From Candidatus Woesearchaeota archaeon (GTDB lineage Archaea > Nanobdellota > Nanobdellia > Woesearchaeales > ARS49), in NCBI GenBank assembly GCA_016188265.1, contig JACPID010000001.1:1674-65673 (forward strand): a stretch of DNA of 64,000 nt, read 5' to 3'. Positions 1,772 to 54,593 of the stretch are shown here, one piece after another. Below the pieces are notes generated by a model. That model saw nothing but the letters and a program-made list of their open reading frames with translations. It did no database searches and was not told the DNA's origin. Both the position numbers and the translations under genes were made by a program. The first letter of the stretch is position 1. Each line of letters opens with the position of its first letter.

Positions 1772-2413
1772 TCATTTCAACTCCTCCATAACATATTCTT
1801 TTAGTTCTTCATGAACTTCTTGAACAAGCCTATTTGCATCTATTATTAATATGTTTTCTTCAGGCAATTGTGATTGAAGTTTAAGATAATTTTCTCTCAG
1901 CTGTTTTTGAAATTCAATTTTTTCAAATACTTCTTTATATTCTCTTCCACTGTCTTTTGCAATTCTTTGTAATGCTATCTCAGCAGGAATATCAAGAATA
2001 AATACTATGTTTGGAACTATTAATCCTTTGTGCATATCAATAAGTTTTTGCAAAAAAATACCTTGTGTTTGCTGGTATGCAAGTGTTGAATATTTATAGC
2101 GATCGCTCACAATTATTCTTCCATGATGTAGCGCTGGCGCAATGAGGTTTGAGCAGTGTTCTTTTCTATCTTCAACAAATAGTTCTGCAAGTTGTTCTGC
2201 ATTTTCTTTAGGATCTTTGCTTTCTTTAAGAATACGCCTTATTTCGCGTGTATAGACAGTATTGTCTGGCTCTCTGGTCAAAATAATTGTAAAATATTTA
2301 TTATTATCAAACAGCCAATTTGCTAGTAACTTGATTTGAGTTCCTTTACCAGAGCCATCTAAGCCATCCAATACAATAAACAATCCATCATTAAGTACTT
2401 TTTCAAGAGTCAC
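1772..2413 (-). CDS. tmk: thymidylate kinase
   Basis: P-loop LDGLDGSGKGTQ and dTMP-kinase length and layout. Confidence 0.8.
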   Translation of the reverse strand: MTLEKVLNDGLFIVLDGLDGSGKGTQIKLLANWLFDNNKYFTIILTREPDNTVYTREIRRILKESKDPKENAEQLAELFVEDRKEHCSNLIAPALHHGRIIVSDRYKYSTLAYQQTQGIFLQKLIDMHKGLIVPNIVFILDIPAEIALQRIAKDSGREYKEVFEKIEFQKQLRENYLKLQSQLPEENILIIDANRLVQEVHEELKEYVMEELK

Positions 2414-2417
2414 TTTT

Positions 2418-2957
2418 TTAACGCCTCACGTATGTTGCAAATGAATAACCTGCATGATCTTCTCTTTTAATTTCTTTCCAGATTTCATCTATTTTTGGAA
2501 AAAATGCATCAGCATCATCAACCACTTGATCAACATGAGTTATTTCTAAACAATCTGTTAAAGGCATGGCTTTTTTGTAAACGTTTTCTCCACCTATAAT
2601 GTAAGCAGGTCTATGAATTAAAATCTCCATTGCAGCGGAGTATAGTAGTTCTGTAGAATGTATTGCTTCGTCTAATGAGTTAACAATAACAATACCTTCT
2701 TCAAAATAATCTTTTTGTCTTGTGAGAACAATGTTTAAACGATTTTTCAAAGGTCTGAAATTTTTAGGTATGCTTTCATAAGTTTTTCTACCCATGATTA
2801 TTGCATGATTTTTAGTTAATTGCTTAAATCTCTTCAAATCTTCAGGAATATGCCACGGAATTTTTCCATTTTTTCCAATAGGATATCCTTTAGTTTCAAC
2901 ATAGTTTTTTGCTACGGCTGCAATGATTGTTAATTTCATTTTAAACTGCAATTTCAA
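2418..2957 (-). CDS. folA: dihydrofolate reductase
   Basis: IIAAVAKN...IGKNGKIPWHIPEDLKRFKQLTKNHAIIMGRKTYESIP, the classic DHFR N-terminus. Overlaps thyA by 17 nt. Confidence 0.8.
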   Translation of the reverse strand: MKLQFKMKLTIIAAVAKNYVETKGYPIGKNGKIPWHIPEDLKRFKQLTKNHAIIMGRKTYESIPKNFRPLKNRLNIVLTRQKDYFEEGIVIVNSLDEAIHSTELLYSAAMEILIHRPAYIIGGENVYKKAMPLTDCLEITHVDQVVDDADAFFPKIDEIWKEIKREDHAGYSFATYVRR

Positions 2958-3807
2958 ATTTTATTGCTGGGTGGCTTTGATAATTAACAATCTTTGTATT
3001 ATTATGAGTCCAATTCCAGATTGATGTAAAGTTTTCAGTAATGATTTCAGGCAATTGCAATGGTTCTCTTTTTAATTGTTCTTCAGATCTTTCAATATGG
3101 TTTAAGTAAATATGTGTGTCTCCTAAAAATCCTGTTAATGTTCCTTCTTTTAAATTAGCCTCTTTTGCTAACAAGTGCAGCAGTGTTGCATAACTTGCAA
3201 TATTAAAAGGCAATCCCAACATTGTGTCTACGCTTCTTTGATACCATATTAAATCTAGTTTTCCACTCTGCACTATTGTTTGATATAATAAATGGCAGGG
3301 AGGTAATGCCATTTGATCTAACTGTTCAGGATTCCAAGAACTTACAATTATTCTTCTATCATTGGGCTTATTTTTCAATTTATCAATCATTTGTTCTAAT
3401 TGATCAACCCCTTTTCTAGTATAATCTGTTTGTTCACCAACATAATCTGCATTCCAGTGCCTCCATTGAAATCCATAAATTGGTCCTAAATCTTGTTCTT
3501 CTAACATTTTTTTTTTTGTTTCACCATCATGAGAATAAGGCACTTTCTTAGGATTGCACCATTCATCCCAAATATGACATCCATTTTCTTGATACCATTT
3601 CTTGTTAGTTATCCCTTTGATAAAGCCCTCTAATTCAACTTTCACACTTTTATAAGCCATTTTTTTTGTTGTTAATAAAGGAAATCCTTGACTCATATTG
3701 TGTTGAAATCTTTCTCCAGTTATACCTATTGTTCCAACACCAGTTCTATCTAGTTTTTCAACACCATTTTCCAAAATGTTTTGAACAATTCTTAAGTATT
3801 CTTTCAT
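2941..3807 (-). CDS. thyA: thymidylate synthase (folate-dependent ThyA)
   Basis: ThyA motifs: PLLTTKK, catalytic-Cys region LPPCHLLYQ, FNIASYATLLHLLA. Confidence 0.85.
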   Translation of the reverse strand: MKEYLRIVQNILENGVEKLDRTGVGTIGITGERFQHNMSQGFPLLTTKKMAYKSVKVELEGFIKGITNKKWYQENGCHIWDEWCNPKKVPYSHDGETKKKMLEEQDLGPIYGFQWRHWNADYVGEQTDYTRKGVDQLEQMIDKLKNKPNDRRIIVSSWNPEQLDQMALPPCHLLYQTIVQSGKLDLIWYQRSVDTMLGLPFNIASYATLLHLLAKEANLKEGTLTGFLGDTHIYLNHIERSEEQLKREPLQLPEIITENFTSIWNWTHNNTKIVNYQSHPAIKFEIAV

Positions 3808-3811
3808 GTTA

Positions 3812-4642
3812 TCATTTCTTTTTCAAATCTTTCGACAATCTTGGAAGCATTGCATAAGGCGTCCATGACGATTTTAATTCTTCAAGAGTTTTTCCCTGCT
3901 GATATTTTCCTTTTGAAGTATAATCATCACCTAATATTTCTTCTACTTCCATAAAAACAACTTGCCCGATTTTTGCTCCAACTGGAAGCACTATCTTTTT
4001 ATCAGAATTATTTGTTATTTCTAAAGTCCACCTGTTAAAATAAGGCACATCTCCCCATCCTGCGCATTTTGCTATTTCTATAAAATTGCGCCCCCATGAA
4101 GAGCGCGCTTTCATCATTGTTGTAACATTTCTTCCACTGCCACCAATATACTCTTGAGTGTGCGCAAGAATTGTTTCTTTTGGTTCAAGTAAAATGATTT
4201 GAGAATTAGGAGTTACTAAAGTGTTTTTTCCAAAAACATCTTCAAAAAAAAGTTTTGTCCATGCTTGATGTCTTGCGTATGTTTGTGATCTTAATTCTTC
4301 AAATAATTCCAGTGCAGTTTTAGCATATAAAGGTTCACCCCATACCTTGCTTACATGTTCATCATTATAAGGGTTATAAATATTAAATGGAAGCTCAACT
4401 TTCTGTTCTCTGAAATAATTTTCTCCAAGAGAAACATCATAGCTTGATGTGTTTAATTTTTTTTCATCAAATGGGTGTATTGTTATTGTTTTATTTTCTA
4501 AATGCCTTAAAATTGCAGTGTTTGAAAGCACAGATCGTGTTCCATATTTTTCAACAAGTGAATTAATAACTAGTTTTAATTTAGGTTCAATATCTAATTC
4601 TTTAATTAATTCTTCTAGATCTTTTTTAGTTAAATCTGCCAT
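3812..4642 (-). CDS. dcd: dCTP deaminase family protein (long form)
   Basis: C-terminal half aligns by eye with E. coli Dcd: ARSSWGR (GRSSLAR) and GWGDVPYFNRWTLEITNNSDKKIVLPVGAKIGQVVF. Carries an N-terminal extension of about 70 aa. Confidence 0.65.
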   Translation of the reverse strand: MADLTKKDLEELIKELDIEPKLKLVINSLVEKYGTRSVLSNTAILRHLENKTITIHPFDEKKLNTSSYDVSLGENYFREQKVELPFNIYNPYNDEHVSKVWGEPLYAKTALELFEELRSQTYARHQAWTKLFFEDVFGKNTLVTPNSQIILLEPKETILAHTQEYIGGSGRNVTTMMKARSSWGRNFIEIAKCAGWGDVPYFNRWTLEITNNSDKKIVLPVGAKIGQVVFMEVEEILGDDYTSKGKYQQGKTLEELKSSWTPYAMLPRLSKDLKKK

Positions 4643-5193: not shown

Positions 5194-5934
5194 TTATTCT
5201 TTTGCTGTTTGCCATAATATGTTGAAGTAGGATTTGAATGACGCGCTTATTTCTTTGCTTTGTATTAGTATTGCAAATGGTCTGTCTCCTGCTAACCATA
5301 AGAGTAGAACCGTTTTATTTCCATAAATATATATAGTCATAGGGCTTTCATGTGTTTTAGGAAGATATTTTACTTCTGTTAAAGAATAAGTCTTAAATTC
5401 TTCACCTAGTTTGACTCCTTCTCCTGTTTGGTTAATGAGTGTTTTAAGTTTTATTTTGTTTTTTATTCTTTCTTTATGAAATCTCTGAATAAAAAATAAT
5501 GGTAAGATCTGTCTACTTTTTCCTGTGGTTCCTATGGCAAACCAATCTTTTCTGGTTCTTAGAATATCATTAAGAATTGTTTTCATTCCTTCTTTATCTT
5601 CATAAACTTCAACAAATGGCTTTGAGAATGCTATTTGATGAAACGCTTTAAGATTAGGTAAAATGCTTAATATAGAATGTTCTTTTTCTTTTAAGTAATC
5701 TAAAATCTTTTCAGGAGGTGCTGCATGAAAAAATTTAATATTATTTTTGACAACATAAGAAACCAATCCGCGGCTTATGAGACTTCTTAATGTATCGTAT
5801 AGGTGTGTTCTGGATTCATTTGTTTTCTTTGCTATATCCGCTACAGTTGCTTCTTGGAGCTGTAATAGTGCTAAATATGCGTCGGCCTCTCTGTTTGATA
5901 GTCCAATTCTTATTAATTGATCTTTCTCGCTCAT
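5194..5934 (-). CDS. TrmB-family HTH transcriptional regulator (paralog 1)
   Basis: N-terminal TrmB wHTH: LSNREADAYLALLQLQEATVADIAKKTNESRTHLYDTLRSLISRGLV. Confidence 0.7.
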   Translation of the reverse strand: MSEKDQLIRIGLSNREADAYLALLQLQEATVADIAKKTNESRTHLYDTLRSLISRGLVSYVVKNNIKFFHAAPPEKILDYLKEKEHSILSILPNLKAFHQIAFSKPFVEVYEDKEGMKTILNDILRTRKDWFAIGTTGKSRQILPLFFIQRFHKERIKNKIKLKTLINQTGEGVKLGEEFKTYSLTEVKYLPKTHESPMTIYIYGNKTVLLLWLAGDRPFAILIQSKEISASFKSYFNILWQTAKE

Positions 5935-6033
5935 TTTAGCATCTTAATTGCTTTTTTTATTTAAATCTTTACTTTATTAGTCCATTAATGGACAAATATG
6001 TTTTTTATACTATGACTATTGTGTAGTGATTAA

Positions 6034-6786
6034 ATGATGCTTTTAAATAAGGTTGGGATTGTAACAGGATCTTCCCGAGGAATTGGAAGAGCAACAGCAA
6101 TAGAAGCAGCTAGAAAAGGTGCTAAGATAGTCATTAACTATAAAGAAGACGTTGAATCAGCCCAAAAAACATTAGAGCACGTTGAACAAGCAGGCAGTCA
6201 AGCAATTATTGTACGAGCTGACGTTTCTCAACAAGATCAAGTTGAAAAATTAGTAGATACAAGTTTTAAAAGATTTGGCAGAATTGATTTTTTAGTTAAT
6301 AATGCCGGAATTATAAGAGATTCTTTGATTGAAAACATGAGTTTTGAAGATTGGGATGCAGTGATTAGAACTAACTTGTATGGCCCTTTTTACATTATAA
6401 AATATGCAATACCTTACTTAAAACAAAGTAAAGGTGCCATTGTTAATGTATCTTCAAGTGCAGGTAAAAGAGGAACATTCGGTCAAGCTAATTATGCAGC
6501 AAGCAAGTCTGGTCTTGAAGCACTTACAAGAGTTGCAGCAAGAGAACTAGGAAGGCATGGTGTTAGAGTTAATGCAGTTTCTCCACCTTTTATCAAAACA
6601 GATTCTTTTTACAGACACAAGAAAAAAGAAGTTATTGAACAAAGAGCTGTGGGAGAAAGTGCTCTTGGAACTCACGGAGATCTTGAGGATTTTGCTAATT
6701 TTATTATTTATTTATTATCAGATAGAACCAAAAATGTTACTGGAAAAACATTTTGGTTTGATTCAAGAATGTACACACTAAAATGA
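6034..6786 (+). CDS. fabG: SDR oxidoreductase, 3-oxoacyl-ACP reductase FabG-like
   Basis: GIVTGSSRGIGRATA (TGxxxGIG) plus NNAG and the catalytic YAASKSG (YxxxK) motif. Confidence 0.75.
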   Translation: MMLLNKVGIVTGSSRGIGRATAIEAARKGAKIVINYKEDVESAQKTLEHVEQAGSQAIIVRADVSQQDQVEKLVDTSFKRFGRIDFLVNNAGIIRDSLIENMSFEDWDAVIRTNLYGPFYIIKYAIPYLKQSKGAIVNVSSSAGKRGTFGQANYAASKSGLEALTRVAARELGRHGVRVNAVSPPFIKTDSFYRHKKKEVIEQRAVGESALGTHGDLEDFANFIIYLLSDRTKNVTGKTFWFDSRMYTLK

Positions 6787-8012
6787 CCCGAAAAATAGTA
6801 GTTACTGGAATTGGAACAATATCCTCCACAGGAAAAGATAAAGAAGAGTTATGGACTAATTTACTTAATGGTAGGTCTGGAATTAAAACAATTACTCAGT
6901 TTGATGTTTCTAAGTTCCAAACAAGAATTGGTGGAGAAATTAACCCAACTATTGTTGAACTTTTTTTACAAAGAGAAAGAAGACCTTTAGATTTATGTGC
7001 TGGTTATGCTTTATACGCTGCAGATCAAGCAATTAAAGATTCAGGAATAGAATTATATAAGGTTGATGCCGAGAGAGTTGGAGTAGTTATTGGTTCTTCA
7101 AAAGGACCATTTGCAACAATATGCAGTGCAATAAGAAAAATAAGCGTAGAAATACCTATTGATTCTTATCATTTGTCTGATTGTTGTCATGGGAGTTTAT
7201 CAACGACTATTGCTATAAAATATGGCTTAAAGGGAGTAAATCATTTGATTTCCTCAACTTCTGCGTCTTCAGCTCACGCTATAGGTTTGGCTTTTGAAAA
7301 AATAAAGTATGGCAAACAAGATGTTGTAGTTTGTGGTGGTGCAGAAAATCCATTGCTTCCTGAGATTTTTGCTATGTATGAAGCAACGAGAATCATGTCC
7401 AGAAAAAATGAAAACCCGGAAAGAGCTTGCAAACCATTTGATAAAGAAAGGGATGGTATTGTTTTAGGGGACGGTGCAGGAATCCTTATTCTAGAAGAGT
7501 TAGAACATGCAAAAAGAAGAGGAGCTAATATTTATTGTGAACTTGCAGGTTATGGAGCGACTTCTGATGCTTATCATCCTGCAAGTATACCTCCTGATGC
7601 AAATGGAATGATTAGAGCAATGAAGTTAGCGTTACAAGAAGGAGAAATTAATCCTGAAGAAGTTGGATATATTAATCCTCATGGAACAGCAACAAGATTA
7701 AATGACAGAATGGAAACCTTAGCAATTAAAAGGCTGTTTGGTCAAAGATCTAGCCAAATACCTGTTAGCTCAACAAAATCTATTACTGGGCATTTATCAG
7801 GAGCTTCAGCAAGTTTAGAAGCAGTAATTTGCAGTTTAGTAATTTCTAGAGGAATTATTCCTCCAACAATTAACTATCAAAATCCTGATCCAGATTGCGA
7901 TTTGGATTATGTTCCAAATCAAGCAAGAGAGCAAAAAGTTGATGTTATTCTTAAAAACTCTCTTGGTTTCGGAGGAACAAATGCATCATTAGTATTCAAC
8001 AGGTACTATTAA
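6783..8012 (+). CDS. beta-ketoacyl synthase (FabF/FabB-like KAS) with Ser in place of the nucleophilic Cys
   Basis: KIVVTGIGTISSTG N-terminus, INPHGTATRLND and GHLSGASASLEA His motifs, GFGGTNASLVF C-terminus. The active-site block reads LISSTSASSAHAIG and contains no Cys. Confidence 0.75.
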   Translation: MTRKIVVTGIGTISSTGKDKEELWTNLLNGRSGIKTITQFDVSKFQTRIGGEINPTIVELFLQRERRPLDLCAGYALYAADQAIKDSGIELYKVDAERVGVVIGSSKGPFATICSAIRKISVEIPIDSYHLSDCCHGSLSTTIAIKYGLKGVNHLISSTSASSAHAIGLAFEKIKYGKQDVVVCGGAENPLLPEIFAMYEATRIMSRKNENPERACKPFDKERDGIVLGDGAGILILEELEHAKRRGANIYCELAGYGATSDAYHPASIPPDANGMIRAMKLALQEGEINPEEVGYINPHGTATRLNDRMETLAIKRLFGQRSSQIPVSSTKSITGHLSGASASLEAVICSLVISRGIIPPTINYQNPDPDCDLDYVPNQAREQKVDVILKNSLGFGGTNASLVFNRYY

Positions 8013-8013
8013 T

Positions 8014-8577
8014 ATGATTGAACAATTATCAAGATATCAAGCATTGTTGGAAAAACGAATAAATCAAGGACTAATTAAAAGAGAAGATGTTCCAGAAAAT
8101 CTAACTGATAAGATTGTTTTAGAGAAATTGTTAGGAGTTAGCGAAGAGTATGGACGGATTCCTTTATGTTTTGAAGAAATTAATGTTGGAGACTTATGCA
8201 GGTTACCAAAAGTAAGAATAACTCAGGAAATGCGTGATAGACACGTGCAGATTTATGGTGAAGATTGGCCAAACAAAAGGTTGGAAGAAGTAAGAAAACA
8301 AAAAATAATTCCTGCACCTATTGTTTTATCAACAATTGCCGGTCAAGGAGGAAGCGCGGGTTGGTTAAATGTATACTTAGCACACTCTTACACAGCAAGA
8401 TTTCTTAAACCTATTTTAGTCGGAGATACTATTGAAACTCTTTGTGAGATCATTGGAGTTTTACCTTGTAAAGACAAAAATCATGGTTTTGTAACAGTTC
8501 ACCAAGAAATATTTAATCAGCAGAGTGTTTTAACATATTTTAGAAACATAATTTATGCTGTACTCAAGAAATCCTAA
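8014..8577 (+). CDS. hypothetical protein, possible hotdog-fold partner of the KAS
   Basis: Abuts the KAS gene with a 1-nt gap. Weak MaoC-like resemblance around YGEDWPNKRL...IVLSTIAG. Confidence 0.3.
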   Translation: MIEQLSRYQALLEKRINQGLIKREDVPENLTDKIVLEKLLGVSEEYGRIPLCFEEINVGDLCRLPKVRITQEMRDRHVQIYGEDWPNKRLEEVRKQKIIPAPIVLSTIAGQGGSAGWLNVYLAHSYTARFLKPILVGDTIETLCEIIGVLPCKDKNHGFVTVHQEIFNQQSVLTYFRNIIYAVLKKS

Positions 8578-9395: not shown

Positions 9396-9956
9396 ATGCT
9401 TATTGGTTTAACAAGTTTTATTGGGGCTGGAAAAGGAGTTGCTGCAGAGTATTTTGAAAAAAAAGGTTTTAAAAGAATACCTCTTAGTGATTTTTTGAGA
9501 GAAGAATGCATAAAAAGAGGATTAAGTGTTACTAGAAACATGCTTATTGAGATTGGCAATGAATTAAGATTAAATGAAGGCCCAGGTGTTTTAGCAAAGC
9601 TTGCTTTAAAATCTTTAAAAAATAATGAAAATGCAGTTATTGAATCCATTAGAAGTCCTGAAGAAATTAATGAATTAAGAAAAAGAAAAGATTTTATTTT
9701 AGTAAGCTTAATTTCAAGCCAGCAAATAAGATTTGAGCGTGTAAAATGCAGAGGAAGAGAAAATGATCCTCAAACATTTGAAGAATTTAAAAAACTAGAT
9801 GAGCGTGAAGCTAACAGAAAAGAAGCTCATGGCCAAAAAATTGCGCAGTGTATAGAACTTGCAGATGTTATGATTGTTAATGAAGGATTGTTTGAAGAAT
9901 TATATAAAAAACTTGATCAATTAGTTGAAAATGCTAAACACAAGCGATTATTGTAA
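9396..9956 (+). CDS. P-loop nucleotide kinase-like protein (dephospho-CoA kinase-like N-terminus, degenerate Walker A)
   Basis: MLIGLTSFIGAGKGVAAEYFEKKGF resembles the CoaE IGLTGGIGSGKS motif, but the Walker A is atypical. Confidence 0.35.
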   Translation: MLIGLTSFIGAGKGVAAEYFEKKGFKRIPLSDFLREECIKRGLSVTRNMLIEIGNELRLNEGPGVLAKLALKSLKNNENAVIESIRSPEEINELRKRKDFILVSLISSQQIRFERVKCRGRENDPQTFEEFKKLDEREANRKEAHGQKIAQCIELADVMIVNEGLFEELYKKLDQLVENAKHKRLL

Positions 9957-10671
9957 TCTTTTTCAAGATTCTGTAAAGAGGGGAGAGTCTGTTGTTATTG
10001 CGTGCAAGTGTAGGATTAGGTATTCTGGAAGAGCTGAAAGCTTTTTAGATACTGGCGATAGACTAATTATAGTTAAAAGCGATGGGACTTTATTAGTTCA
10101 CCAGCCAGCAGGCAATAGTCCTATTAATTATATGAAAACACAATCTGTGCATAGTTTAATCATGTATAATGATAAACTTGTTTTGAAATCGCAGAATTCT
10201 TTTCAAAAAGAAAATATTAACATAAATATTGATCGTATTTATTTTTTTAATTCATATAAACTTGAAGATGGCCAAACAATTTCAATAATGGGTACAGAAT
10301 TTGATATGTCAAAAATGATTTATGAAAATCCATCTATTGTTGAAGAAGGATTGAAGCCAGTGAGTCAGGAAGAGCAAACAAAATATGGTTTTATTGATGT
10401 ATTGTGTACTGATAAAAATGGTATTCTGGCAATAATTGAATGTAAAAGATATCAAGCAGATCTTAATTCAGTAACACAATTAAGAAGATATGTTGAAAAG
10501 CTAATGGAAAGCAAAGGAATAAATTCTGTTAGAGGTATATTAGCTGCTCCAAAAATAACACAAAATGCACTTAAAATGCTTCAAGATTGGGGATATAAAT
10601 TTGCAAAAGTTCAACCTCCAAAATTATATGAAGAATTTGACAAGAAACAGCAAAGGCTTGATTTTTTTTAA
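9925..10671 (+). CDS. nucS: endonuclease NucS/EndoMS
   Basis: C-terminal RecB-like nuclease motif IDVLCTDKNGILAIIECKR (D...ExK) with NucS domain organisation. The true start is probably an internal Met. Confidence 0.65.
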   Translation: MKMLNTSDYCNLFQDSVKRGESVVIACKCRIRYSGRAESFLDTGDRLIIVKSDGTLLVHQPAGNSPINYMKTQSVHSLIMYNDKLVLKSQNSFQKENININIDRIYFFNSYKLEDGQTISIMGTEFDMSKMIYENPSIVEEGLKPVSQEEQTKYGFIDVLCTDKNGILAIIECKRYQADLNSVTQLRRYVEKLMESKGINSVRGILAAPKITQNALKMLQDWGYKFAKVQPPKLYEEFDKKQQRLDFF

Positions 10672-16204: not shown

Positions 16205-16987
16205 TTAATTGTTGAGTGTGAACTGTTGAAGGATATTTGAGCATTTGGTTTGTTCTCTTGTTTTTCGAGTTGTATTTTTGTGTTTCCATATTTTATTGAA
16301 ATATTCTTGGTACATTTGGCTTATTTGTTTTGATCTTATTAAGTAGCCTATTGGTTTTTCTGACCAAGCTATTAATGCTACTTTGCTTTGGCATATACTT
16401 ATATCTGAAGGTATTGGAAAGTCTGCATATTTCATGTGTAGTATTTTTCTTCCAATAAATAATTCTTTGATATCTTTTTGGGCGATTCCTCTGACGTATA
16501 AACCTTTTTCAGCCCTTTTAATGTCAAATTTTCTGAAAAAGTCTTGTATTTCTTTATTTTTATCTTTTAAGTATGTTGCAAAAAAATAGTATTCATCGCC
16601 TTTTTTTGCATCTTCAATAAGTAAAGTAAGCATCACCATAATTCCTTTAATTCCTTCAAAAATCTCAGCTTCTTGTCTTTCAACACCTTTTCGTTTTATT
16701 TCAAGTTCTGGAAGAATGTTGGACAATCTTTTTTTCTTTTCTTCAATAAAATCGAGTAATTGCTTTGGAGGAACTGCTTGGTATTGCTTGATTTTTCCTT
16801 TTTTAATGTATGAAACCAGTCCTTTTTCGATTAATGTGTTTATTGAATTATGAACTGCTGAACTTGCCATTCCTGATTTCTCTATTATTGCGCCAACTTT
16901 TGTAGTTCCGAGTTCAAGAAGAGTTAGGTATGTTTTGATCTCTCCTTTACTAAGCCCTAAATCTTCAAGTATTAAAGTATCCATCAA
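16205..16987 (-). CDS. TrmB-family HTH transcriptional regulator (paralog 2)
   Basis: LSKGEIKTYLTLLELGTTKVGAIIEKSGMASSAVHNSINTLIEKGLVSY. A/C-ending codon usage. Confidence 0.7.
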   Translation of the reverse strand: MMDTLILEDLGLSKGEIKTYLTLLELGTTKVGAIIEKSGMASSAVHNSINTLIEKGLVSYIKKGKIKQYQAVPPKQLLDFIEEKKKRLSNILPELEIKRKGVERQEAEIFEGIKGIMVMLTLLIEDAKKGDEYYFFATYLKDKNKEIQDFFRKFDIKRAEKGLYVRGIAQKDIKELFIGRKILHMKYADFPIPSDISICQSKVALIAWSEKPIGYLIRSKQISQMYQEYFNKIWKHKNTTRKTREQTKCSNILQQFTLNN

Positions 16988-19556: not shown

Positions 19557-20291
19557 ATGATTGACAAATATAGTGAAGTTTTGAAAGAGTTTGGACTTTC
19601 AGAAAATGAAGTTAAAGTATACATAACTCTGTTAAAAACTGGAGAATCCGGTGTTCAAAATCTGGCTAAAAATGCAGGACTTCCAAGAACAACAACATAC
19701 CACCTCCTAGAAAGCTTATCACAAAAAGGTCTTGTAAGCCACATCGATAAAAATAAAATAAGATACTTCCAAGCAGCAAATCCTAAAATAATTCCAGAAA
19801 TTCTTGAAGAACAGAAAAAACACATCAAAGAAATAATTCCAGAACTCTTAACAATCGCAGAAACCTTTACAGAAAAGCCCAAAGTTGAAGTTTACGAAGG
19901 AATCAAAGGAATAAAAACAATTCTGGAAGACACACTAGAAACAAAAAAAGAAATACTTCATTATGGAGACATAATATCTTTACAAAACTCATTAAAATAC
20001 ATATTTCCTCAATTTATCAACAAAAGAGTAGAAAAGAAAATACCAATCAAAATACTCTGCAAAAAAGAAGCAGCACACAAAGAATTACTAGAAACAGCTA
20101 AAAAACAATACCGAGAATTCAAATTTATACCATCAAACTACACATTCAAATCAAGCATATTCATCTACAACAAAAAAGTAGCAATACTAAGCCTTCAACA
20201 AGAACCATACTACGGAATCATAATAGACAACGAGGATTTTCACCAAACACAAAAAAACATGTTCGAACTATTATGGCAAACAAAACACTAA
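19557..20291 (+). CDS. TrmB-family HTH transcriptional regulator (paralog 3)
   Basis: LSENEVKVYITLLKTGESGVQNLAKNAGLPRTTTYHLLESLSQKGLVSH. Strongly A/C-rich coding strand. Confidence 0.7.
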   Translation: MIDKYSEVLKEFGLSENEVKVYITLLKTGESGVQNLAKNAGLPRTTTYHLLESLSQKGLVSHIDKNKIRYFQAANPKIIPEILEEQKKHIKEIIPELLTIAETFTEKPKVEVYEGIKGIKTILEDTLETKKEILHYGDIISLQNSLKYIFPQFINKRVEKKIPIKILCKKEAAHKELLETAKKQYREFKFIPSNYTFKSSIFIYNKKVAILSLQQEPYYGIIIDNEDFHQTQKNMFELLWQTKH

Positions 20292-24535: not shown

Positions 24536-26365
24536 TTAAGCGTTTTGGTTGACAAATTGCTGTATTTCTTTCATGTAATTTAAAGAAGATATAAGATTCC
24601 ATTCTCTTGGAAATAGTTTTTTGTATCTTGGCCAGTCATATCTTTCATCTAAAAATACCAACACTCCTTTATCTTTTTCATTTCTTATGCATCTCCCTGA
24701 ATTTTGAAGTGTTTTAGTTATAGCTGGAAGCGTGTATCCATAATCCCATCCTTTGCCAAATAATTCATCATAATATTGTATTAATTCTCTAGACCTAAGA
24801 TTAGGTTTATCTAAAGGGAGGCCAATAACTATTACACATTTGTTTATTCCAGGGAGATCTATCCCTTCGCCAAAAGAACCTGTTGCAGTACATAACATTA
24901 CTGCTCCTTTATAACTCGAATATTTTTTAAGTAATTCTTCTTTTTGTTTTTTTTGCAAGTTAGGCTGCTCAAAAAGAATTGTTTTGTTGCTATATTCTTG
25001 AAAGAAAAAAGCCACGTCATCACGAATTTTGTAGCTGGGAAAAAACAAAAGACTATTTCCATGAATTTCATTGGTTATTTGTGCACAAATTTCTGCAATA
25101 TTTTTATACTGCTCTGGTGATCTTAAAGTAAACTTTGTTGTTGTTTTAGGAATTATCAAAGTGAGCTTGTTTTTTTCAGGAAATGGAGAACTGTATTCTT
25201 GCTTAAAAGTTCCATCTTGAAAACCCAGCACATCCTGATACATTATTGTTGGAAGAAGTGTGCCTGACATAATAATCATAGAATGGCATTGATTAATTAC
25301 CGGCTTTGTAATAATTGAAGGATCTAAGCATTGCAGAAAAATTTTAACATTTTCTTTTTCTTTTTTCACATAGCGAATAAATCCTTTTTCACCTTCAGGC
25401 CATTTTTTAAGAAAGCTTGCAATTACTCCCAGAGAACTTTGCTTTTGTTCATTTCTCACTAAATCTGCACTTGTTTCTAGCTCTGCAATAAATTGCTGCA
25501 GAGGTTTTATTTTATCAATTTCATTTACTAAAAATTGTGATGATATTTTTTTTTCTTCGTCAACTAATTTACTCCCTATTTGTTGAATTAAATGAAGCAA
25601 TTCTATAAGTGGAAGAATAACTGGTTCTATATTGTACTTTTTTGCTTCTTTTATTGCACGCTGAATAATATTTGTACTTAATATAGAACTCATTAAATCT
25701 CTGACTCTTTCAGGAAGATTGTGTGCTTCATCAACTATAACTATGCAGTCTTCAAGATTCTTATTAATCTTGCTTAAAAAGTTCTTCCTTATTGATTCAT
25801 TAAAAATGTAAAAATAATCTGCAATAATTATTGTAGAATTACTTGCCAAGTGTAATGCGCTTTCATATGGGCAAATTTTGTGCTTCATTGATGTTGTTAC
25901 AATATTTTCAGTTGTTGGAATAATTTGTAATAGTTCATCATTACAAACTGAAACTTTTGTTTTAGATTTAGAATTCAAATAATATTCACATTTCTCGTCT
26001 TCACGTAAAGAACGGCAAAACTCAACAAAATCTTGTGTTGGCATTGTTGAAGCACCTTCTTGCGCACACATCCATTTTTTTCCAATAAAAGAAGCAACAT
26101 TGAAGTTTACACAATATTTTTGCTTAATATTTTGAACAGTTTCAAGAACAATTTTGTGTTGAGTGTGCCTTGATGTTAAAAATAATATTGTTAATTTTTT
26201 TTCAAGAGCAGCAGTTAGCGCAGGTGAAAGAGATGCTGCAGTTTTTCCCATTCCAGTGGGAGCGTGGATAATTGCATGTTTTTTTTGTTGAATAACTTGA
26301 AAGATCTCTTTCATAATCTGCTCCTGAGTAGGACGCAGTTTTTCATATGGGAAAAAAAAAACCAT
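24536..26365 (-). CDS. xpd: XPD/Rad3-family 5'-3' DNA helicase (FeS domain)
   Basis: Walker A HAPTGMGKT, DEAH, four-Cys FeS cluster (CAQE...FC...KCEY...VC), C-terminal VLVFLDERY block. Confidence 0.7.
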   Translation of the reverse strand: MVFFFPYEKLRPTQEQIMKEIFQVIQQKKHAIIHAPTGMGKTAASLSPALTAALEKKLTILFLTSRHTQHKIVLETVQNIKQKYCVNFNVASFIGKKWMCAQEGASTMPTQDFVEFCRSLREDEKCEYYLNSKSKTKVSVCNDELLQIIPTTENIVTTSMKHKICPYESALHLASNSTIIIADYFYIFNESIRKNFLSKINKNLEDCIVIVDEAHNLPERVRDLMSSILSTNIIQRAIKEAKKYNIEPVILPLIELLHLIQQIGSKLVDEEKKISSQFLVNEIDKIKPLQQFIAELETSADLVRNEQKQSSLGVIASFLKKWPEGEKGFIRYVKKEKENVKIFLQCLDPSIITKPVINQCHSMIIMSGTLLPTIMYQDVLGFQDGTFKQEYSSPFPEKNKLTLIIPKTTTKFTLRSPEQYKNIAEICAQITNEIHGNSLLFFPSYKIRDDVAFFFQEYSNKTILFEQPNLQKKQKEELLKKYSSYKGAVMLCTATGSFGEGIDLPGINKCVIVIGLPLDKPNLRSRELIQYYDELFGKGWDYGYTLPAITKTLQNSGRCIRNEKDKGVLVFLDERYDWPRYKKLFPREWNLISSLNYMKEIQQFVNQNA

Positions 26366-28685: not shown

Positions 28686-29762
28686 TTATAAAACAAACTG
28701 TAATGCATGCCAATCTTCTTTGCCTTGTTTTATTTTAATTTCTTTTTTTAACTTAAATCCTAAGGCTAACTCTATAATTTGTTTTTTATTTTCATGAATA
28801 TATAAAACTATAATTCCTTTTGGAGACAATAATTTTTTAGACTGCTCAAAAAATTGTGAGTATAATTTTATCATTGTTTTGTCATTATTTTTTAGCCAAT
28901 TAGGAGGTTGAGTTATAATACAGTCTATGCTTTGGTCATTAAATTTTAAATCCAACCAGTAAAGGTCTTTTCTACTAAAATTTATAATTTTATTAACTCC
29001 AGCAAGATTTGCATTTTTTTTAGATGATGCTATGTTTTTAAATTGAGGATCAATTGCATAAATAAAAGGATTTGTTTCTTCTTCATTTCTGTCAATATTT
29101 TCTAAAACATTTTTCCAATTGTCATATAACTTTATTTTTGTAAATGCAAAATTATTTTTATTAAAAAAATGCGGTGATTTGTTTTTTGCAATCAGGGCTG
29201 CTTCTATTGGAATTATTCCTGTCCTGCAAAAAGGATCAATGATTTTTTTATTAGCGGAATATTCTGCAATTAAAAGCAGTGAAGCTGCAATATTGCCTCT
29301 TAAGCTATCTGGGCCTAAAAATAATCTATATGCTCTTTTGCCAAGATCAAATCCTGAGATATCTATGCCAAAATAAAATATATTATTTTCAACTATGAAA
29401 TAATAATGAATAATTCCTTGTTTAGGATTATAGCTGCCTTGTATTTTTTTAGCTAAAAGATTTGAAAGCTCAAAGCTTGTAAAAAAGTGCGTTCCTTCTC
29501 TTTGCCCGTTAATTTTAAAGGATTGTTCTGTTTTGAATGATTCAAATTTTTCTAATGGTGTTTTGTCAAAAGAAAATGACTGAATTAATACTATAACCCT
29601 ATTAATTGTTCTTAGCATATAACACAATTCTAAAACTTTTTCGTCAATAACATCACACAAAAGCTTTCCTTCAGAAAGTTCACAATTTAGATTAAACAAA
29701 ACTTTAATCTCCTGAGCACTAATTGCTTCCAGGCCCGGATTGGTTAGAATTAAGATTTTCAT
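28686..29762 (-). CDS. THUMP-domain RNA methyltransferase (tRNA m2G methyltransferase-like)
   Basis: N-terminal THUMP-like region. MTase core with FCRTGIIPIEAALIA and a substrate-binding block ITQPPNW (DPPY/NPPY-like). Confidence 0.55.
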   Translation of the reverse strand: MKILILTNPGLEAISAQEIKVLFNLNCELSEGKLLCDVIDEKVLELCYMLRTINRVIVLIQSFSFDKTPLEKFESFKTEQSFKINGQREGTHFFTSFELSNLLAKKIQGSYNPKQGIIHYYFIVENNIFYFGIDISGFDLGKRAYRLFLGPDSLRGNIAASLLLIAEYSANKKIIDPFCRTGIIPIEAALIAKNKSPHFFNKNNFAFTKIKLYDNWKNVLENIDRNEEETNPFIYAIDPQFKNIASSKKNANLAGVNKIINFSRKDLYWLDLKFNDQSIDCIITQPPNWLKNNDKTMIKLYSQFFEQSKKLLSPKGIIVLYIHENKKQIIELALGFKLKKEIKIKQGKEDWHALQFVL

Positions 29763-32700
29763 CAGGTTCTTCTTGAATAAGTGCTATACTTGTTACTTCA
29801 TCAGGTTCTTCAATTCGTATCACACGAACACCTTGCGTATTTCTTCCTACTGAACTTATGCCTTTAACAGCTGTTCTGATTGTAATTCCATTTTTTGTTA
29901 TTAACATGATCTCATCTCTATCTGAAACTTGTTTTATTCCTATTACTTTTCCATTTTTATCTATTATATTTATGTTGCGCACTCCACTTCCACCCCTATT
30001 TATTAATCTGTACTCAGTGATGGGGGTTCTTTTTCCATAACCCTTTTCTGTTATTGTTAACAATTGTTTAGTTTCATCTGTTGCAACTGCACCAACAACT
30101 TGATCATTTTCTTTAAGTTTTATTCCGATTACTCCTTTAGATGTTCTTCCAGTAGGCCTTATATCTTCTTCACTAAATCTATTTGCTACACCATTTGCTG
30201 TTGCTATCATTATTTGTTTTTGGCCGTCTGTTAGTATGACGCTGATTAATTCGTCATTTTCATCAATTGTTATTGCAGCAATGCCTCCTCTTCTTGGTCT
30301 AGAAAATTCTTCTAGTGATGTCTTTTTTACAGTGCCTAATTTTGTAGTCATGAATACAAATTTATCTGGATTAAACTCAGTTACATTAACATGAGCAGTT
30401 ACTCTTTCGCCAGGTTCAAGCGATAATAAATTTATTATTGCAGTTCCTTTTGCATATCTTCCTGCTTCTGGAATTTGGTAGACTTTAAGCAAATGAACCT
30501 TTCCTTTATTTGTAAAAAATAAAACAGTATCATGAGTGTTGGCAACAAAAATATCTTCAATAAAATCCTCTTCTTTTGTTTCAGCGCCAATAATTCCTTT
30601 TCCACCGCGACGCTGTTGTTTATACATATCAGCAGATAATCTTTTTACATAATTAGCATGAGATATTGTGACAGCCATATTTTCAGATTTTATGATTTGC
30701 TCCTCCTTAAAATCTGCAGTTTCATCAAGAATAATTTGTGTTCTGCGATTATCTCCGTATTTTTCTTTTAAATTATTAAGCTCATCTTTTATTATTCCTA
30801 AAATTCTTTGTTCACTTGCCAATATCTGTCTAAGTTCGTCTATAAGTTTGATCAGTTCTTTATGCTCATCCTTAATTTTTTCTTGTTCAAGGGCTGTTAA
30901 TCGTTGTAAACGCATTTCGAGAATTGATTTAGCTTGAATTTCTGTTAATTGATAATCTTGAACTAAGCCAGTTATTGCTTGCTGTACTTCTTTTGATGCT
31001 TTTATAAGAGAAATTACATCATCAATATTGTTAAGCGCTATTATAATCCCCTCAATAATGTGCGCTCTCTGTTCTGCCTGCCTACAGTCATACTCTGTTC
31101 TTTTACGAACTATGTTTTGTCTATGCTCAATAAATTTTTGAAGTATTTCTTTAAGCGTAAGTATTTTAGGTTGTTGATCATCAAGCGCTAAGAGAATTAT
31201 TCCAAAAGTTTCTTGAAGGCGTGTATAACGGTACAGCTGGTTTAAAACAATATCTTGATTTGCTCCGCTTTTAAGTTCAACAACTATTCTTATTCCTTCT
31301 CTATCACTTTCATCACGCAAATCACTAATGCCTTCAATTCTTTTTTCTTTGACAAGTTCAGCAATATTTTCTATAATCTGAGCTTTATTAACCATATAAG
31401 GAATTTCTGTAATTATTATGCGAAATTTATTTTTATTCTCTTCAATATGTGCTTTTGCTCTTACAGTGATTTTTCCTTTGCCAGTTTCATATGCCTGTTT
31501 TATTCCAGATGATCCGCAAATCAGTGCACCAGTGGGAAAATCAGGGCCTGGTACTTTTTGCATCAACTCATTAACATCTGCACTTGGATTATCAATAAGA
31601 TGAATAACTGCTGAGCATATTTCAACAATATTATGTGGTGGAATGTTTGTTGCCATTCCAACTGCAATGCCTGAACTGCCATTAATAAGTAAATTTGGCG
31701 CTGTGGAAGGCAAGACTGTTGGTTCTTTTCTTGTAGTGTCGTAATTATCAACAAAATTAACTGTTTCTTTTTCTATATCTTCAAGCATTTCTTCTGCTAA
31801 TTTACTAAGTCTTGCTTCGGTGTTATGATTAATAAAACCATTTGCAACAAAAGAATGGCATTTACTGTCTACTTTAATAGAAAATACTTCTTTGAGTTGT
31901 TCTGTTTTTTCAACTTGAATTATTTGGTCAAAATAAAACCTGTTTTTTAATAGCCAATCAATTAACTTCTTGTCTTCTTTATCGATGATTTTTATGAGTT
32001 TCAAATAATTTTTGCTTAATGAATTATATCTGTCTAAATTATTTTTTGACAAAAATTCTTTTGAATACTTGTTTCGTAAATAATCGTTCAAAAAAGGAAT
32101 GAAATCGTACTTGCTCATTCGAGAAGAATTCATGCTGAGTATATTGCTGAGCTTTTTTTTCTTTCTCTCTGAAAAAAATCCAAGTTCTTCATGAAACTTT
32201 TTCAGATTAGCGAATGAAGATACTATTAGTTTTTTGCAATCATTTCTTTTGTCTAAATGAGGAATGTTAGAGACAATTCCAAAATTTAGAAGCGCTATTT
32301 TTAATTGTTTAATTAATTTTTCACTTTTTGAATCATAACAAACCAATAAGTTTTCTCCGCCGTGTCTTTTGTCAAAATGGTGAAGAACTGAGCCGTCTCC
32401 TTCAAATAAAGAAACAAGAAAACTTTGTAAGTCTTCTTTTTTTGACTGCAATACTGAAAATGGGATTTCTTTGCCGTCTGCTTTTGATTCGTTGAAACCT
32501 ATATTCTTTAAGAATAAAACGACCTTTTGCTCGTAAATACTTAATTCAGTGCACTCTCCCTTAATTTTCCTTTCATAAAGTTTTATTCCTTTAAATTGCT
32601 GTTGAATTATTTTTTTAACTTTATTATAAAAGAGTTTATCTTTGTTATTGAATAAAATTTGTTTATTGTGAAAACTTCCTTCACTCACTAATGCGCCAAG

Positions 32701-33513
32701 CAAAAAGGCTAAATTTTTATTCATTATTTTTGGCAGACTAACATTGTTTTTGAACCCATCTTTTGGATAAAAATTTTCTAAATTCAAAGAATCTTCAGAA
32801 AACATGGCGTTTCTATTAATTGTTGCTATATCTCCTTCTTCTAAATTCTCTAAAAGCTTCCAAGAAATTTCCGGCTTAAAATTAAGTCCAACTCTCCAGG
32901 TCAGTATTGGATGATTGTAAGAACCTTCTAATTCGTAACCTGTTTTAGTTTTTATTTTTATTGTTTTGTGCTTGCCTGAATTGAAGAATTTAGAGGCTCT
33001 GTTTATATTTCCATCGTGCGACAATATTTTTAAATTAATTTTTTCTTCTTTTCTTTTTGAAATATCTTTTATTTCTATTAGTCCTTTGTCTGTTTGCAAA
33101 AGAGAATCTCCTGTGATGCAGTAACGATACGCAGCTGCAGAATCCCCGTCGACAGAACCAAAATTTCCTTGTCCTTCAACTAATAGATATCTTAAATTCC
33201 AGGGCTGCGCCATTCTAACAAGAGCGTCATAGACTGCTGTATCTCCATGAGGGTGGAATTTCTTCAAAACATCTCCTATAATACCTGCACATTTTGAGTA
33301 TCTTTTGTTTGAAAGCAGCCCTTCTTGAAACATTGAGTAAAGAATTCTTCTATGAACTGGTTTTAAGCCATCTTTGACATCAGGTAAAGCGCGACCTACG
33401 ATTACTGACATAGAATAAGCTAAATATGCTTTTTTTACCTCATTTTCAATGAGTTTTGGTATGATCTTTCCATCTACAGGCGTTGTAGGCTGCTGGCTTG
33501 TTTCAGTGTCCAT
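29719..33513 (-). CDS. gyrA: DNA gyrase subunit A containing an in-frame intein
   Basis: GyrA N-terminus and catalytic AAAYRY, then C-ITGDSLL...VANGFINHN before [12 protein letters not shown]. GyrA C-terminal beta-pinwheel repeats follow. Confidence 0.85.
31822..33120 (-). mobile_element. GyrA intein (433 aa) with LAGLIDADG homing endonuclease domain, inserted right after the catalytic Tyr
   Basis: Splice junctions Y/CITGD and [18 protein letters not shown] blocks [14 protein letters not shown] and [15 protein letters not shown]. Same insertion point as the known Mxe GyrA intein. Confidence 0.8.
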
Positions 33514-38886: not shown

Positions 38887-38944
38887 TTTATTACAATAAT
38901 CCTTTTATACTAGTACTTTGTCATCAAAACGAGGGGGTTTGATA

Positions 38945-39688
38945 ATGAAACTAGTATTGCAAGATCCAACTTATTTAAAAGATAGTATTACAGTTATTTC
39001 TGAACTTGTTAATGAAGCGAGATTTACTGTTAACAAAGAAGGCTTGGAGCTTGTTGCAATGGATCCTGCAAATGTTGCAATGGTTGTGTTTAAATTATTA
39101 TCAAGTAATTTTTCAGAATTTCAAGTTGATGATAAAAAAGAACTTGCATTAAATCTTGCTAATTTAAAACAAGTGCTTAAACGATCTTCTGCTTCAGATG
39201 TTGTAAGTCTTGAAGTTGAAGATAATAAGTTAAAAGTTCAATTACGTTCTAATTCCACAAGAACATTTCATCTGCCATTGCTTGATCTTGAAGAAAGAGA
39301 ACAGAAAATACCAAACTTAAAATTTCCAGTGCAAGCAGAAATGCCGAGTGATGTGTTAAATCAAGCAGTTGAAGATTCTACAGTTGTTTCAGAAAGTGTA
39401 ACCCTGGAAATTGAACCGCAAAAATTCAGTGTGCTTGCAGAAGGAGATTTAAGTAAAGCTCATGTAGAAATTCCAGCAGATGAAACAGTAAAAATAACAA
39501 GTGAAACAAGTGCAAATGTAAGAGCAAAATATTCTGTTGAGTACTTAAAAAAAATGATGCAGGGAAGTAAATTAGCTGATAAAGTTACTGTTTTCTTAAA
39601 TCAGAATTATCCGTTAAAATTAGAATATAAAGTTGTTGATAAGTTATTACTTAACTTTATTCTAGCTCCCAGAGTAGAAAATAATTGA
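38945..39688 (+). CDS. pcn: DNA polymerase sliding clamp PCNA
   Basis: MKLVLQDPTYLKDSITVISELVNEARFTVNKEGLELVAMDPANVAMV and two-domain PCNA layout. Start at the internal Met. Confidence 0.75.
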   Translation: MKLVLQDPTYLKDSITVISELVNEARFTVNKEGLELVAMDPANVAMVVFKLLSSNFSEFQVDDKKELALNLANLKQVLKRSSASDVVSLEVEDNKLKVQLRSNSTRTFHLPLLDLEEREQKIPNLKFPVQAEMPSDVLNQAVEDSTVVSESVTLEIEPQKFSVLAEGDLSKAHVEIPADETVKITSETSANVRAKYSVEYLKKMMQGSKLADKVTVFLNQNYPLKLEYKVVDKLLLNFILAPRVENN

Positions 39689-52694: not shown

Positions 52695-53743
52695 AAAAGA
52701 TTTTGGCTGAGTTTAAAGTAAACTATATTCAAGTACTTGATGAAAGAGGTGAAGTGGACAAAAAATTAATGCCAAAATTTTCAAAAAATCAAATTAAAAA
52801 TATGTATTAATTAATGCTTTTAACTCGTGCTTTTGATGAAAAGGCTCTTTTACTTCAAAGGCAAGGGCGTTTGGGAACTTATGCTGTTTCAAGAGGCCAA
52901 GAAGCTGCGCAAATTGGTTCTGCTTTAGCTTTGAAAAATGATGACTGGGTTGTGCCAAGTTTTCGTGAGCAGGGTGTTTTTATTGCATTGGGATATCCTT
53001 TGCACCAGTTATACCAGTATTGGGGTTGGGATGAGAGAGGTATGAATATTCCTAAAAAATTTAGTATTCTTCCAATTACTATTCCTGTTAGCGCTCAAAT
53101 TCCTCATGCTGTTGGAATTGCATATGCATTAAAGTTAAGAAATGAAAAAAAAGTAGTTGCATGCTATTTTGGTGATGGGGGAACAAGCAAAGGAGATTTT
53201 CATGAAGGCCTAAATATGGCAGGTGTGTGGGCTCTTCCTGTTGTTTTTATTTGCCAAAATAATCAGTGGGCAATAAGTGTTTCTAGAAAAAAACAAAGTG
53301 CTTCAAAAACATTGGCGCAAAAAGCTATTTCTTATGGATTTGAAGGTATTCAGGTTGATGGCAATGATGTTTTTGGTATTTACAAGGTTGTTTCTGAAGC
53401 TGTAAAAAAAGCAAGAAGCGGAAAAGGGCCTAGTTTAATTGAGTGTTTTACTTACAGAATCGGAGATCACACAACTTCTGATGATGCTTCACGTTATCGT
53501 TCAAAAAAAGAAGTTGAAAGCTGGATTAAAAAAGATCCTATTGAACGCTTAAGAAAGTATATGAAAAAAAAAGAAATGTGGACAAAGATGTATGAAAAAC
53601 AATTGAAAAAAAAAATAGGCAAACAAGTAAAAGAAGCTGTTGAAAGATTTGAAAAAATCCCTAAACAAAATCCAGAGGAAATGTTTAGATATGTTTATGC
53701 TGAAATGCCTTGGTTTTTAAAAGAAGAGATGAGAGATATATGA
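52691..53743 (+). pseudogene. pdhA: 2-oxoacid dehydrogenase E1 alpha subunit interrupted by an in-frame TAA at 52808..52810
   Basis: The upstream 39 codons (MKKILAEFKVNYIQVLDERGEVDKKLMPKF...) and the listed ORF LMLLTRAFDEKALLLQRQGRLG are in one frame. Together they reconstitute the conserved E1alpha N-terminus. The TPP motif YFGDGGTSKGDFHEGLNMA is intact. Confidence 0.6.
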
Positions 53744-54489: not shown

Positions 54490-54575
54490 TCAAGTAGTTC
54501 TTGATCACTGTTGAAAACTGCTTGTCGTTTCTACTGACTTAAGTCGGTAGTGTACCTCAAGAGCAGTTTTCAATG
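54435..54575. repeat. structured repeat element, copy C, overlapping the 3' end of the lipoate-ligase gene
   Basis: TGTCAAGAACTAC...GTAGTTCTTGATCA hairpin; block GGTAGCGTGTTTACACACAGCTACAAAATGATC matches copy B (GGCAGCGTGTTTTCACACAGCTACTAAATCATC). Second hairpin TTGAAAACTGCTTG...CAAGAGCAGTTTTCAA with inner CTACTGACTTAAGTCGGTAG. Confidence 0.6.
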
Positions 54576-54593
54576 TATTAAAGGTGAAATTGT

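Follow-up and report, generated by a model that had tools for sequence, protein, structure and literature searches.

The active-site cysteine of elongating ketosynthases (KSs) is treated as invariant, and its mutation to serine is the textbook way to kill condensation. In nature, the KS^S domains of the polyene polyketide synthases (PKSs) NysA, RimA, AmphA and PimS0 carry a serine at the nucleophile position and retain both histidines. These domains are thought to be non-condensing and to select or decarboxylate the starter unit (PMC4540446). KS^Q domains and chain-length factors (CLFs) also keep the KS fold without a cysteine nucleophile, and they retain malonyl decarboxylation. DpsC, a member of the same thiolase superfamily, uses a natural serine nucleophile, forms an acyl-O-Ser and can catalyse acyl transfer or condensation (PMC12664062). 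Here we analyse a ketosynthase gene (6783..8012, + strand) in a stretch of 64,000 nucleotides from a Candidatus Woesearchaeota archaeon (contig JACPID010000001.1; hereafter the window). The encoded protein descends from FabF, the bacterial β-ketoacyl-acyl carrier protein (ACP) synthase II (KAS II), and has serine in place of the nucleophilic cysteine. With a probability of roughly 0.38, we favour the reading that it is a functional FabF derivative kept by selection, which would condense decarboxylatively to a short 3-oxoacyl thioester that is reduced by a short-chain dehydrogenase/reductase (SDR).

The window KS, a protein of 409 aa, has the same fold and length as bacterial FabF. It shares with FabF the residues His303, His340, Lys335, Asp311 and Phe400 and the GFGG loop (residue changes are given in E. 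coli FabF numbering), and a FabG-like reductase precedes it as in fab operons. Pfam assigns the N- and C-terminal ketoacyl-synt domains (E=4e-46 and 3e-33). The protein scores 476.8 bits against the NCBIfam FabF subfamily NF005589, above the cut-off of 387, and 476.1 bits against the fabF equivalog TIGR03150, narrowly under the cut-off of 493.75. The identity to bacterial FabFs is 46-49%, and phmmer against the PDB gives full-length matches to the FabF structures of Bacillus, Listeria, Pseudomonas and E. coli (E=1e-108 to 1e-101). No match to the FabH / KAS III family was obtained in the Pfam, NCBIfam and PDB comparisons. The FabF-type identity proposed in a preliminary description of this DNA is thereby borne out. 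The exact protein is public as MBI2564369.1, labelled Candidatus Woesearchaeota archaeon and annotated as ‘beta-ketoacyl-ACP synthase family protein’.

Counted from the ATG, codon 160 starts at 6783 + 159*3 = 7260, and the TCT at 7260..7262 (+ strand) encodes Ser160 in the peptide context LISSTSASSAHAIG. We used MAFFT to align the protein to E. coli FabF together with its 119 best homologues in the database. In this alignment, as in the phmmer comparison with the PDB FabFs, Ser160 occupies the column of Cys163 without a gap. All 119 others have Cys here; Ser is confined to the window KS and P0002 (MFZ5559453.1), a protein of the candidate phyla radiation (CPR). The preliminary description had placed Ser160 at the nucleophile position from a gap-free block of 30 residues shared with E. 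coli FabF and devoid of cysteine. This block was reproduced, and the KS motifs named with it (VVTGIGTISSTG, HGT, GHL and GFGGTNASLVF) are all present, with His303, His340, Lys335 and Phe400 kept. A cysteine from elsewhere in the protein at the nucleophile position was considered and rejected, as both alignments agree without gaps.

The best matches of the window KS are KAS II enzymes, and its triad is Ser-His-His: both histidines of the FabF triad (Cys163, His303, His340) are in place, and Ser160 takes the position of the cysteine. Unlike bacterial FabF, the window KS shows C163S, A162T, a Lys/Tyr gate, a mostly polar pocket and partial loss of the ACP-docking residues. Its setting differs as well, with no ACP, FabD, FabH or FabZ near the gene and with a DPANN archaeon and a CPR bacterium as hosts of the clade. 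The protein is a FabF descendant that lacks two family-defining features, the cysteine nucleophile and the hydrophobic gated pocket.

The window KS also departs from the other enzymes without cysteine. The polyene KS^S domains reside inside CoL-ACP-KS^S-AT-ACP megasynthases (AT, acyltransferase) and have an A-S-S motif, whereas the window KS is a stand-alone protein with T-S-A. Because its identity to the type I KS^S domains is only 23-25%, its serine has arisen independently of them. KS^Q and CLF proteins differ in having Gln rather than Ser. Moreover, the CLF forms a heterodimer with an adjacent KS-alpha, whereas no second KS gene is present in the archaeal or the CPR locus, and CLFs usually also lose the His residues, both of which the window KS keeps. 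The chain-length-factor-like role that the preliminary description had offered is unlikely, given the lack of an adjacent partner KS gene and the Ser instead of Gln. DpsC, in contrast to the KAS II-type window KS with its Ser-His-His triad, is a KAS III (FabH)-type protein with an AT-like Ser-His-Asp triad.

A sequencing or assembly error has to be considered, for one base separates TGT from TCT, and the preliminary description had named such an error as a possibility. However, the KS gene shows zero nucleotide differences, TCT included, in five independent Logan assemblies, each of a separate run (SRR12113383, -384, -420, -422, -424). Furthermore, the orthologue P0002, at 59% identity, encodes its serine by TCA and carries the accompanying A162T. 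A misread base is refuted by these observations, and we assign it a negligible probability.

P0002 derives from a Patescibacteria (CPR) metagenome-assembled genome, shows the same T-S-A-S motif, and is the only close homologue of the window KS. When ~5.8 billion protein clusters were queried with the window KS, P0002 scored 562 bits and was followed by ordinary Cys-FabFs, which levelled off at <=415 bits. With a profile built from both members, the scores were 874 and 866 bits for the pair and 474 bits for the next sequence, the best ordinary FabF. In all, the clade searches covered ~5.8 billion protein clusters, 185,579 genomes and 241 million metagenome records. Apart from chance matches, a scan of the 185,579 species-representative genomes for the degenerate DNA motif encoding G-x-N-x4-[ST]-T-[S/C]-A-[ST]-x2-H-[AS]-I-G recovered only the CPR contig and two KSs from Zixibacteria, which have T-C-A. 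The same type of scan revealed no further clade member in the JGI metagenome collection.

A profile search of the representative library is uninformative for the clade, as clustering at 50% places the clade behind a normal FabF representative. The matches listed are mostly multi-KS megasynthases, and the other Ser-bearing KS domains among them are parts of giant type I PKSs. P0128, P0162, P0182, P0218 and P0263 are such giant type I PKSs, with Ser in an A-S-S/A motif; some of these KS domains lie at the N-terminus, as would fit loading domains of the polyene KS^S type. We also notice fused proteins of ~800 aa with two KS domains, in which the second KS-like domain has G, Q, A, I, R, H or other residues at the nucleophile position.

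The clade is real but tiny, consisting of one DPANN archaeon and one CPR bacterium. The preliminary description had suggested checking whether the serine is conserved in a clade; it is common to both members, and only two members are known. In the literature searched, we found no published account of a stand-alone Ser-FabF, including in DPANN or CPR organisms. The stand-alone Ser-FabF is a new and very rare variant of a known theme, the ketosynthase without cysteine.

The identities of both hosts are secure. The window encodes TFS, NMD3, Trm1, XPD and NucS, and to its right lies an operon for archaeal ribosomal proteins that includes S4e, SUI1 and RNase P p29; these genes confirm the archaeal context assumed before. 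The CPR contig encodes the bacterial markers L33, L10, L7/L12 and YceG. The window and CPR genes use the same codon at only 46% of their identical residues, and the GC content at third codon positions (GC3) of the SDR-KS module equals that of the host genes in both genomes. We rejected a recent island of horizontal gene transfer, as GC3 matches the host in each case. The codon usage is fully ameliorated in both members. Because codon sharing is low, GC3 is host-like and the serine is retained, the two KS(Ser) genes must have diverged anciently, resided long in their hosts and been under purifying selection. The serine substitution is real and conserved, and it probably reflects an altered chemistry rather than a broken enzyme.

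Comparing the two Ser proteins with the Cys-FabFs revealed which parts of the active site are preserved and which are changed. Among 119 Cys-FabFs, 146 columns are at least 90% conserved; both Ser proteins keep 101 of these 146 columns, and both alter 29. His303, His340, Lys335, Asp311, Thr307, Asp265, the gatekeeper Phe400 and the GFGG loop are retained in both members. Together, these residues form the complete malonyl-binding and decarboxylation half-site. Meanwhile, A162T, C163S, G107S, I108K, F133H, V134L, I138C/S, F202Y, F229I/V, T270A, A302P, M337I and L342S/A are found in both. The 29 altered columns cluster at 107-144, 162-163, 201-207, 229, 270-272, 302 and 337-342, and the same new residue appears in both members at 17 of the 27 altered columns that are ungapped in both.

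The acyl-pocket and nucleophile region at residues 106-167 (7098..7283, + strand) is remodelled, with G107S, I108K, F133H and A162T, and reads SKGPFATIC...IDSYHL.DC.HGS.STTIAI...LISSTSAS..HAI. It is the best-conserved part of the pair, with 67-80% identity compared with 59% for the whole protein. The I108-F202 back gate is Lys-Tyr in both members; the PDB alignment fixes the gate column independently, as 4ls6 and 4ls5 differ by F and I opposite Lys107. In FabF, I108-F202 gates the acyl pocket at ~C7-C8, the I108F mutation limits the enzyme to C8 products, and R206A lowers kcat (PMC9006962). The ACP-docking residues are partly eroded: both members have P or D instead of K69, the window KS has a deletion of K128, and the CPR KS has Gly in place of R206.

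The hydrophobic acyl pocket with an I108-F202 back gate, typical of FabF, is missing from both members. Their pocket is polar, and homology indicates that its back gate is closed. With the half-site retained and the new pocket residues clustered and shared, the pattern suggests that function has shifted in a coordinated way at the acyl side and has been preserved at the malonyl side, unlike what decay would produce.

The gene directly upstream of the KS encodes a FabG-like SDR of 250 aa (6034..6786, + strand; adh_short_C2, E=1e-63) with TGxxxGIG and the N-S-Y-K tetrad. The start codon of the KS and the stop codon of the SDR overlap in the ATGA at 6783-6786. On the CPR contig, an SDR with 54% identity is likewise followed by the KS, with a gap of 6 nt. 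The N-S-Y-K tetrad is intact in both SDRs, the CPR copy being cut at the contig start. The substrate loop of both SDRs has an insertion rich in lysine, and their C-terminus is DSR[ML]Y where FabG has NGGMY. The window SDR scores 227.7 against TIGR01830, with a cut-off of 297.75, and stays under the cut-off for every FabG model. In both organisms, translation of the KS is coupled to that of a FabG-like ketoreductase, and the conserved unit is SDR+KS, with the ketoreductase-type SDR as the sole conserved partner.

In the archaeal locus only, a third gene (8014..8577, + strand) starts 1 nt past the KS stop and encodes a divergent MaoC-like hot-dog protein of 187 aa (MBI2564370.1), named ‘MaoC family dehydratase’ at NCBI. 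Its match to Pfam MaoC PF01575 is sub-threshold (E=0.038, 14 bits, gathering 27), PDB 1q6w is matched at E=0.001, and the database contains a single homologue. AlphaFold2 (AF2) gave a predicted local distance difference test (pLDDT) score of 36 from the single sequence. From a two-sequence alignment, it gave a model of moderate quality, with pLDDT 66 and a predicted template-modelling score (pTM) of 0.61. Foldseek matched this model to 1q6w (E=2.4e-9, TM 0.55/0.65) and then to HadA, PhaJ, MeaC and PaaZ, the E values ranging from 2e-9 to 1e-6. The model thus supports a MaoC-type fold, in line with the preliminary guess of a hot-dog protein. The canonical hydratase motif GDxNPxH is absent from the 187-aa protein. 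We notice an invariant TQEMRDRHV block, in which E72 and H77 align with what we take to be D31 and H36 of PhaJ; as a lead, this block may provide an acidic residue and a His that are spaced as in the canonical motif.

The gene directly after the CPR KS(Ser) (L001 2130..2597, contig JBMORO010000028.1) encodes a different protein, of 155 aa with an N-terminal hydrophobic segment, which belongs to no Pfam family and does not resemble the hot-dog protein of the archaeon. The genes of ribosomal protein L33 and MazG follow directly. As the third genes of the two loci are non-homologous, we rejected a third gene as part of the conserved module. The preliminary description had correctly laid out the neighbours of the KS: the SDR, the 187-aa open reading frame (ORF), and a divergent TrmB gene, whose gap of 99 nt it had given as 100 nt. 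It had overlooked that the serine comes with a coordinated remodelling of the pocket, that the conserved unit, common to a CPR bacterium, is SDR+KS with the hot-dog protein outside it, and that the clade has two members.

We screened both loci for partners from a type II fatty acid synthase (FAS). Neither the 64-kb window with ~8 kb to its left and 10 kb to its right (~82 kb) nor the 12 kb read from the CPR contig yielded an ACP, FabD, FabH, FabZ, AcpS or enoyl reductase; FabG served as a positive control in these screens and was detected. A screen of the window, the extensions and the CPR contig for PhaJ was negative. A role of the SDR, KS or hot-dog protein in a defence system was rejected, as none of the three has a PADLOC match.

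The gene set echoes that of mitochondrial FAS, which consists of a FabF-like KS, an SDR ketoreductase and the MaoC-type HTD2. It also resembles archaeal ACP-independent FAS, which is composed of a ketothiolase/DUF35 pair, an SDR reductase, a MaoC dehydratase and an enoyl-CoA (coenzyme A) reductase (bioRxiv 10.1101/2024.07.05.601840). Both that system and the window locus are archaeal, have no ACP close by, and unite a condensing enzyme with an SDR and a hot-dog protein of the MaoC type. In contrast, the window locus has a bacterial-type, putatively decarboxylating Ser KS instead of the thiolase/DUF35 pair, and no enoyl reductase was found in the regions searched. Its hot-dog protein has diverged strongly and has no counterpart in the CPR locus.

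On the basis of these comparisons, we propose how the KS may work. Judged from the sequence, the canonical acyl-S-Cys intermediate of the ping-pong mechanism is impossible for an enzyme with Ser160. A malonyl thioester would be bound and decarboxylated to the enolate by His-His-Lys and the Phe400 gate. This thioester is probably linked to CoA, because no ACP is encoded nearby and the ACP-docking patch is partly eroded. The closed, polar pocket would admit only a short (<= ~C6-C8) or polar acyl group. We speculate that this group, held as an acyl-O-Ser ester or present as a bound acyl thioester open to direct attack, captures the enolate. The net product would be a short 3-oxoacyl thioester, which the co-transcribed SDR would reduce to the 3-hydroxyacyl thioester. 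Dehydration or another processing step by the MaoC-like protein may follow in the archaeon.

Several points weigh against such a condensing enzyme. We know of no precedent for a condensing ketosynthase with a Ser-His-His triad. For Cys-His-His KSs, the passages of PMC4540446 that cite Witkowski 1999 and Bisang 1999 state that condensation is generally lost upon either exchange, with decarboxylase activity kept or raised. The only natural precedent for a Ser nucleophile, DpsC, relies on a Ser-His-Asp triad in a KAS III scaffold (PMC12664062). With two sequences, the conservation within the clade has little statistical depth, and the properties assigned to the pocket depend on alignment to the residue roles of E. 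coli FabF. In addition, no carrier, substrate or enoyl reductase for the KS was identified, the searches being limited to ~82 kb and 12 kb.

Pure decarboxylation, which the preliminary description had also offered, is nearly as likely as the favoured condensing option, doubtful as it is when taken by itself. The KS would convert a malonyl or other beta-carboxy thioester into the acetyl/acyl thioester, with the Ser hydroxyl filling the site of the missing acyl-thioester and with the acyl pocket filled in. The intact His-His-Lys-Phe400 set, the lost nucleophile and the back gate closed by Lys-Tyr agree with this activity, which has been proposed for the polyene KS^S and established for Cys-to-Gln variants (PMC4540446, PMC7327777). 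However, the conserved SDR of the beta-ketoacyl-reductase type would have no obvious substrate after plain decarboxylation, the loci searched contain no partner KS or ACP to prime, and the new pocket residues are conserved instead of drifting. Mutagenesis of NysA also suggested that Ser at the Cys position is not the residue that matters for decarboxylation (PMC4540446). The condensing reading, on the other hand, accounts for the conservation of both the SDR and the new pocket residues. Plain acyl transfer, close to the ester-forming variant raised in the preliminary description, seems improbable to us. Ser160 would be acylated as in DpsC or AT-type enzymes and would pass the acyl group to a thiol, hydroxyl or amine without forming a C-C bond, and the Lys, His, Tyr, Thr and Ser of the polar pocket could contribute a base or hold a polar acceptor. 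Such a reaction needs no strict retention of K335, D311, F400 and the two His residues; moreover, the scaffold is the His-His type of FabF and not the Ser-His-Asp of DpsC, and no conserved acceptor-related gene lies nearby. A dead relic or structural subunit has a similarly low probability. In that case, a FabF acquired by horizontal transfer would have lost its nucleophile in reduced genomes that have given up making fatty acids, and would now serve the SDR as a scaffold or be about to disappear. A relic would suit the general lack of fatty-acid synthesis in CPR and DPANN organisms, the extreme rarity of the clade, and the failure to find an ACP or other FAS genes nearby. Nevertheless, both ORFs are intact, and 101 of the 146 FabF-invariant columns, with every catalytic residue other than the cysteine, have been kept across 41% divergence and two domains of life. 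The altered residues are themselves conserved, and the codon usage is fully ameliorated.

A more specific, speculative role comes to mind from an operon of the pyruvate dehydrogenase (PDH) type ~45 kb downstream of the KS (52814..56761, + strand; 52814..57573 with the amidohydrolase gene that follows). It encodes, in this order, E1-alpha, a LipB-like octanoyl/lipoyl transferase, E1-beta and an E2 with a lipoyl domain. E1-alpha scores 460 bits against TIGR03181, above the cut-off of 411; the best NCBIfam matches of the LipB-like protein are all LipB, at 89 bits and under the cut-off. Neither E3 nor LipA is adjacent to the operon. The octanoyl group that LipB-type enzymes transfer comes from a thioester that fatty-acid synthesis provides; a LipB-type enzyme implies a source of octanoyl thioester. 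That archaea possess such transferases has served as an argument for a source of fatty acids in archaea (PMC3904984). The SDR/KS(Ser)/MaoC-like operon might accordingly be a minimal ACP-independent builder of short chains, which would hold the acyl group as an oxygen-ester acyl-enzyme or non-covalently, stop at ~C6-C8 owing to its Lys-Tyr back gate, and supply the LipB-like octanoyltransferase with an octanoyl thioester. In a variant of this idea, the nucleophile may have moved to Cys134, which is invariant in the clade and lies in a new D-C-x-H motif. We regard lipoate supply as a long shot: no enoyl reductase or carrier was found in the regions searched, and the PDH-type operon is not co-localised with the KS.

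The SDR-KS operon faces a divergently transcribed gene of a TrmB-family regulator (5194..5934, - strand; Pfam TrmB, E=7.5e-16) across an intergenic gap of 99 nt. Within this gap, a perfect 14-bp palindrome, GTCCATTAATGGAC (5980..5993), unique in the window, is situated between two divergent TATA-like elements, each ~26-30 nt upstream of an ATG. In a shuffling control, at least one match at <=2 mismatches occurred in 9 of 100 shuffles. It is plausible that this candidate operator is bound by TrmB, and the TrmB and SDR-KS transcripts are probably leaderless. Three TrmB-family paralogues lie within 15 kb (5194..5934, -; 16205..16987, -; 19557..20291, +), an unusual density for a small genome.

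Other genes of the window deserve mention. The DNA gyrase subunit A gene (29719..33513, - strand; 1264 aa) contains an intein with a LAGLIDADG homing-endonuclease domain (Intein_splicing and LAGLIDADG_3, residues ~146-564). A cluster for dTMP synthesis (1772..4642, - strand) comprises a dCTP deaminase-like protein, ThyA, DHFR and thymidylate kinase; ThyA with DHFR represents the bacterial-type route, not ThyX. At 41979..43382 (+ strand), a protein of 467 aa combines Schlafen AlbA_2 and HATPase_c_4 with a C-terminal winged helix-turn-helix. The DNA repair complement is fairly rich for a DPANN genome fragment, with a Hef-like helicase/ERCC4 nuclease fusion (58007..60292, + strand), an XPD-type helicase (24536..26365, - strand), NucS (9925..10671) and PCNA (38918..39688).

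A natural, selected Ser-FabF provides a test case for whether a KS of the Cys-His-His family can act via an oxyester or a non-covalent route, or as a free-standing malonyl-thioester decarboxylase. Its present annotation as a beta-ketoacyl-ACP synthase would wrongly credit both organisms with FabF in metabolic reconstructions. The occurrence of the same rare SDR+KS module in one CPR bacterium and one DPANN archaeon points to gene sharing between, or into, both groups. If the lipoate-supply reading were true, it would explain the source of the lipoate carbon chain in an archaeon without a fatty acid synthase. More broadly, the module points to an unrecognised small-acyl metabolism in ultra-small symbionts, which is possibly related to cofactors.

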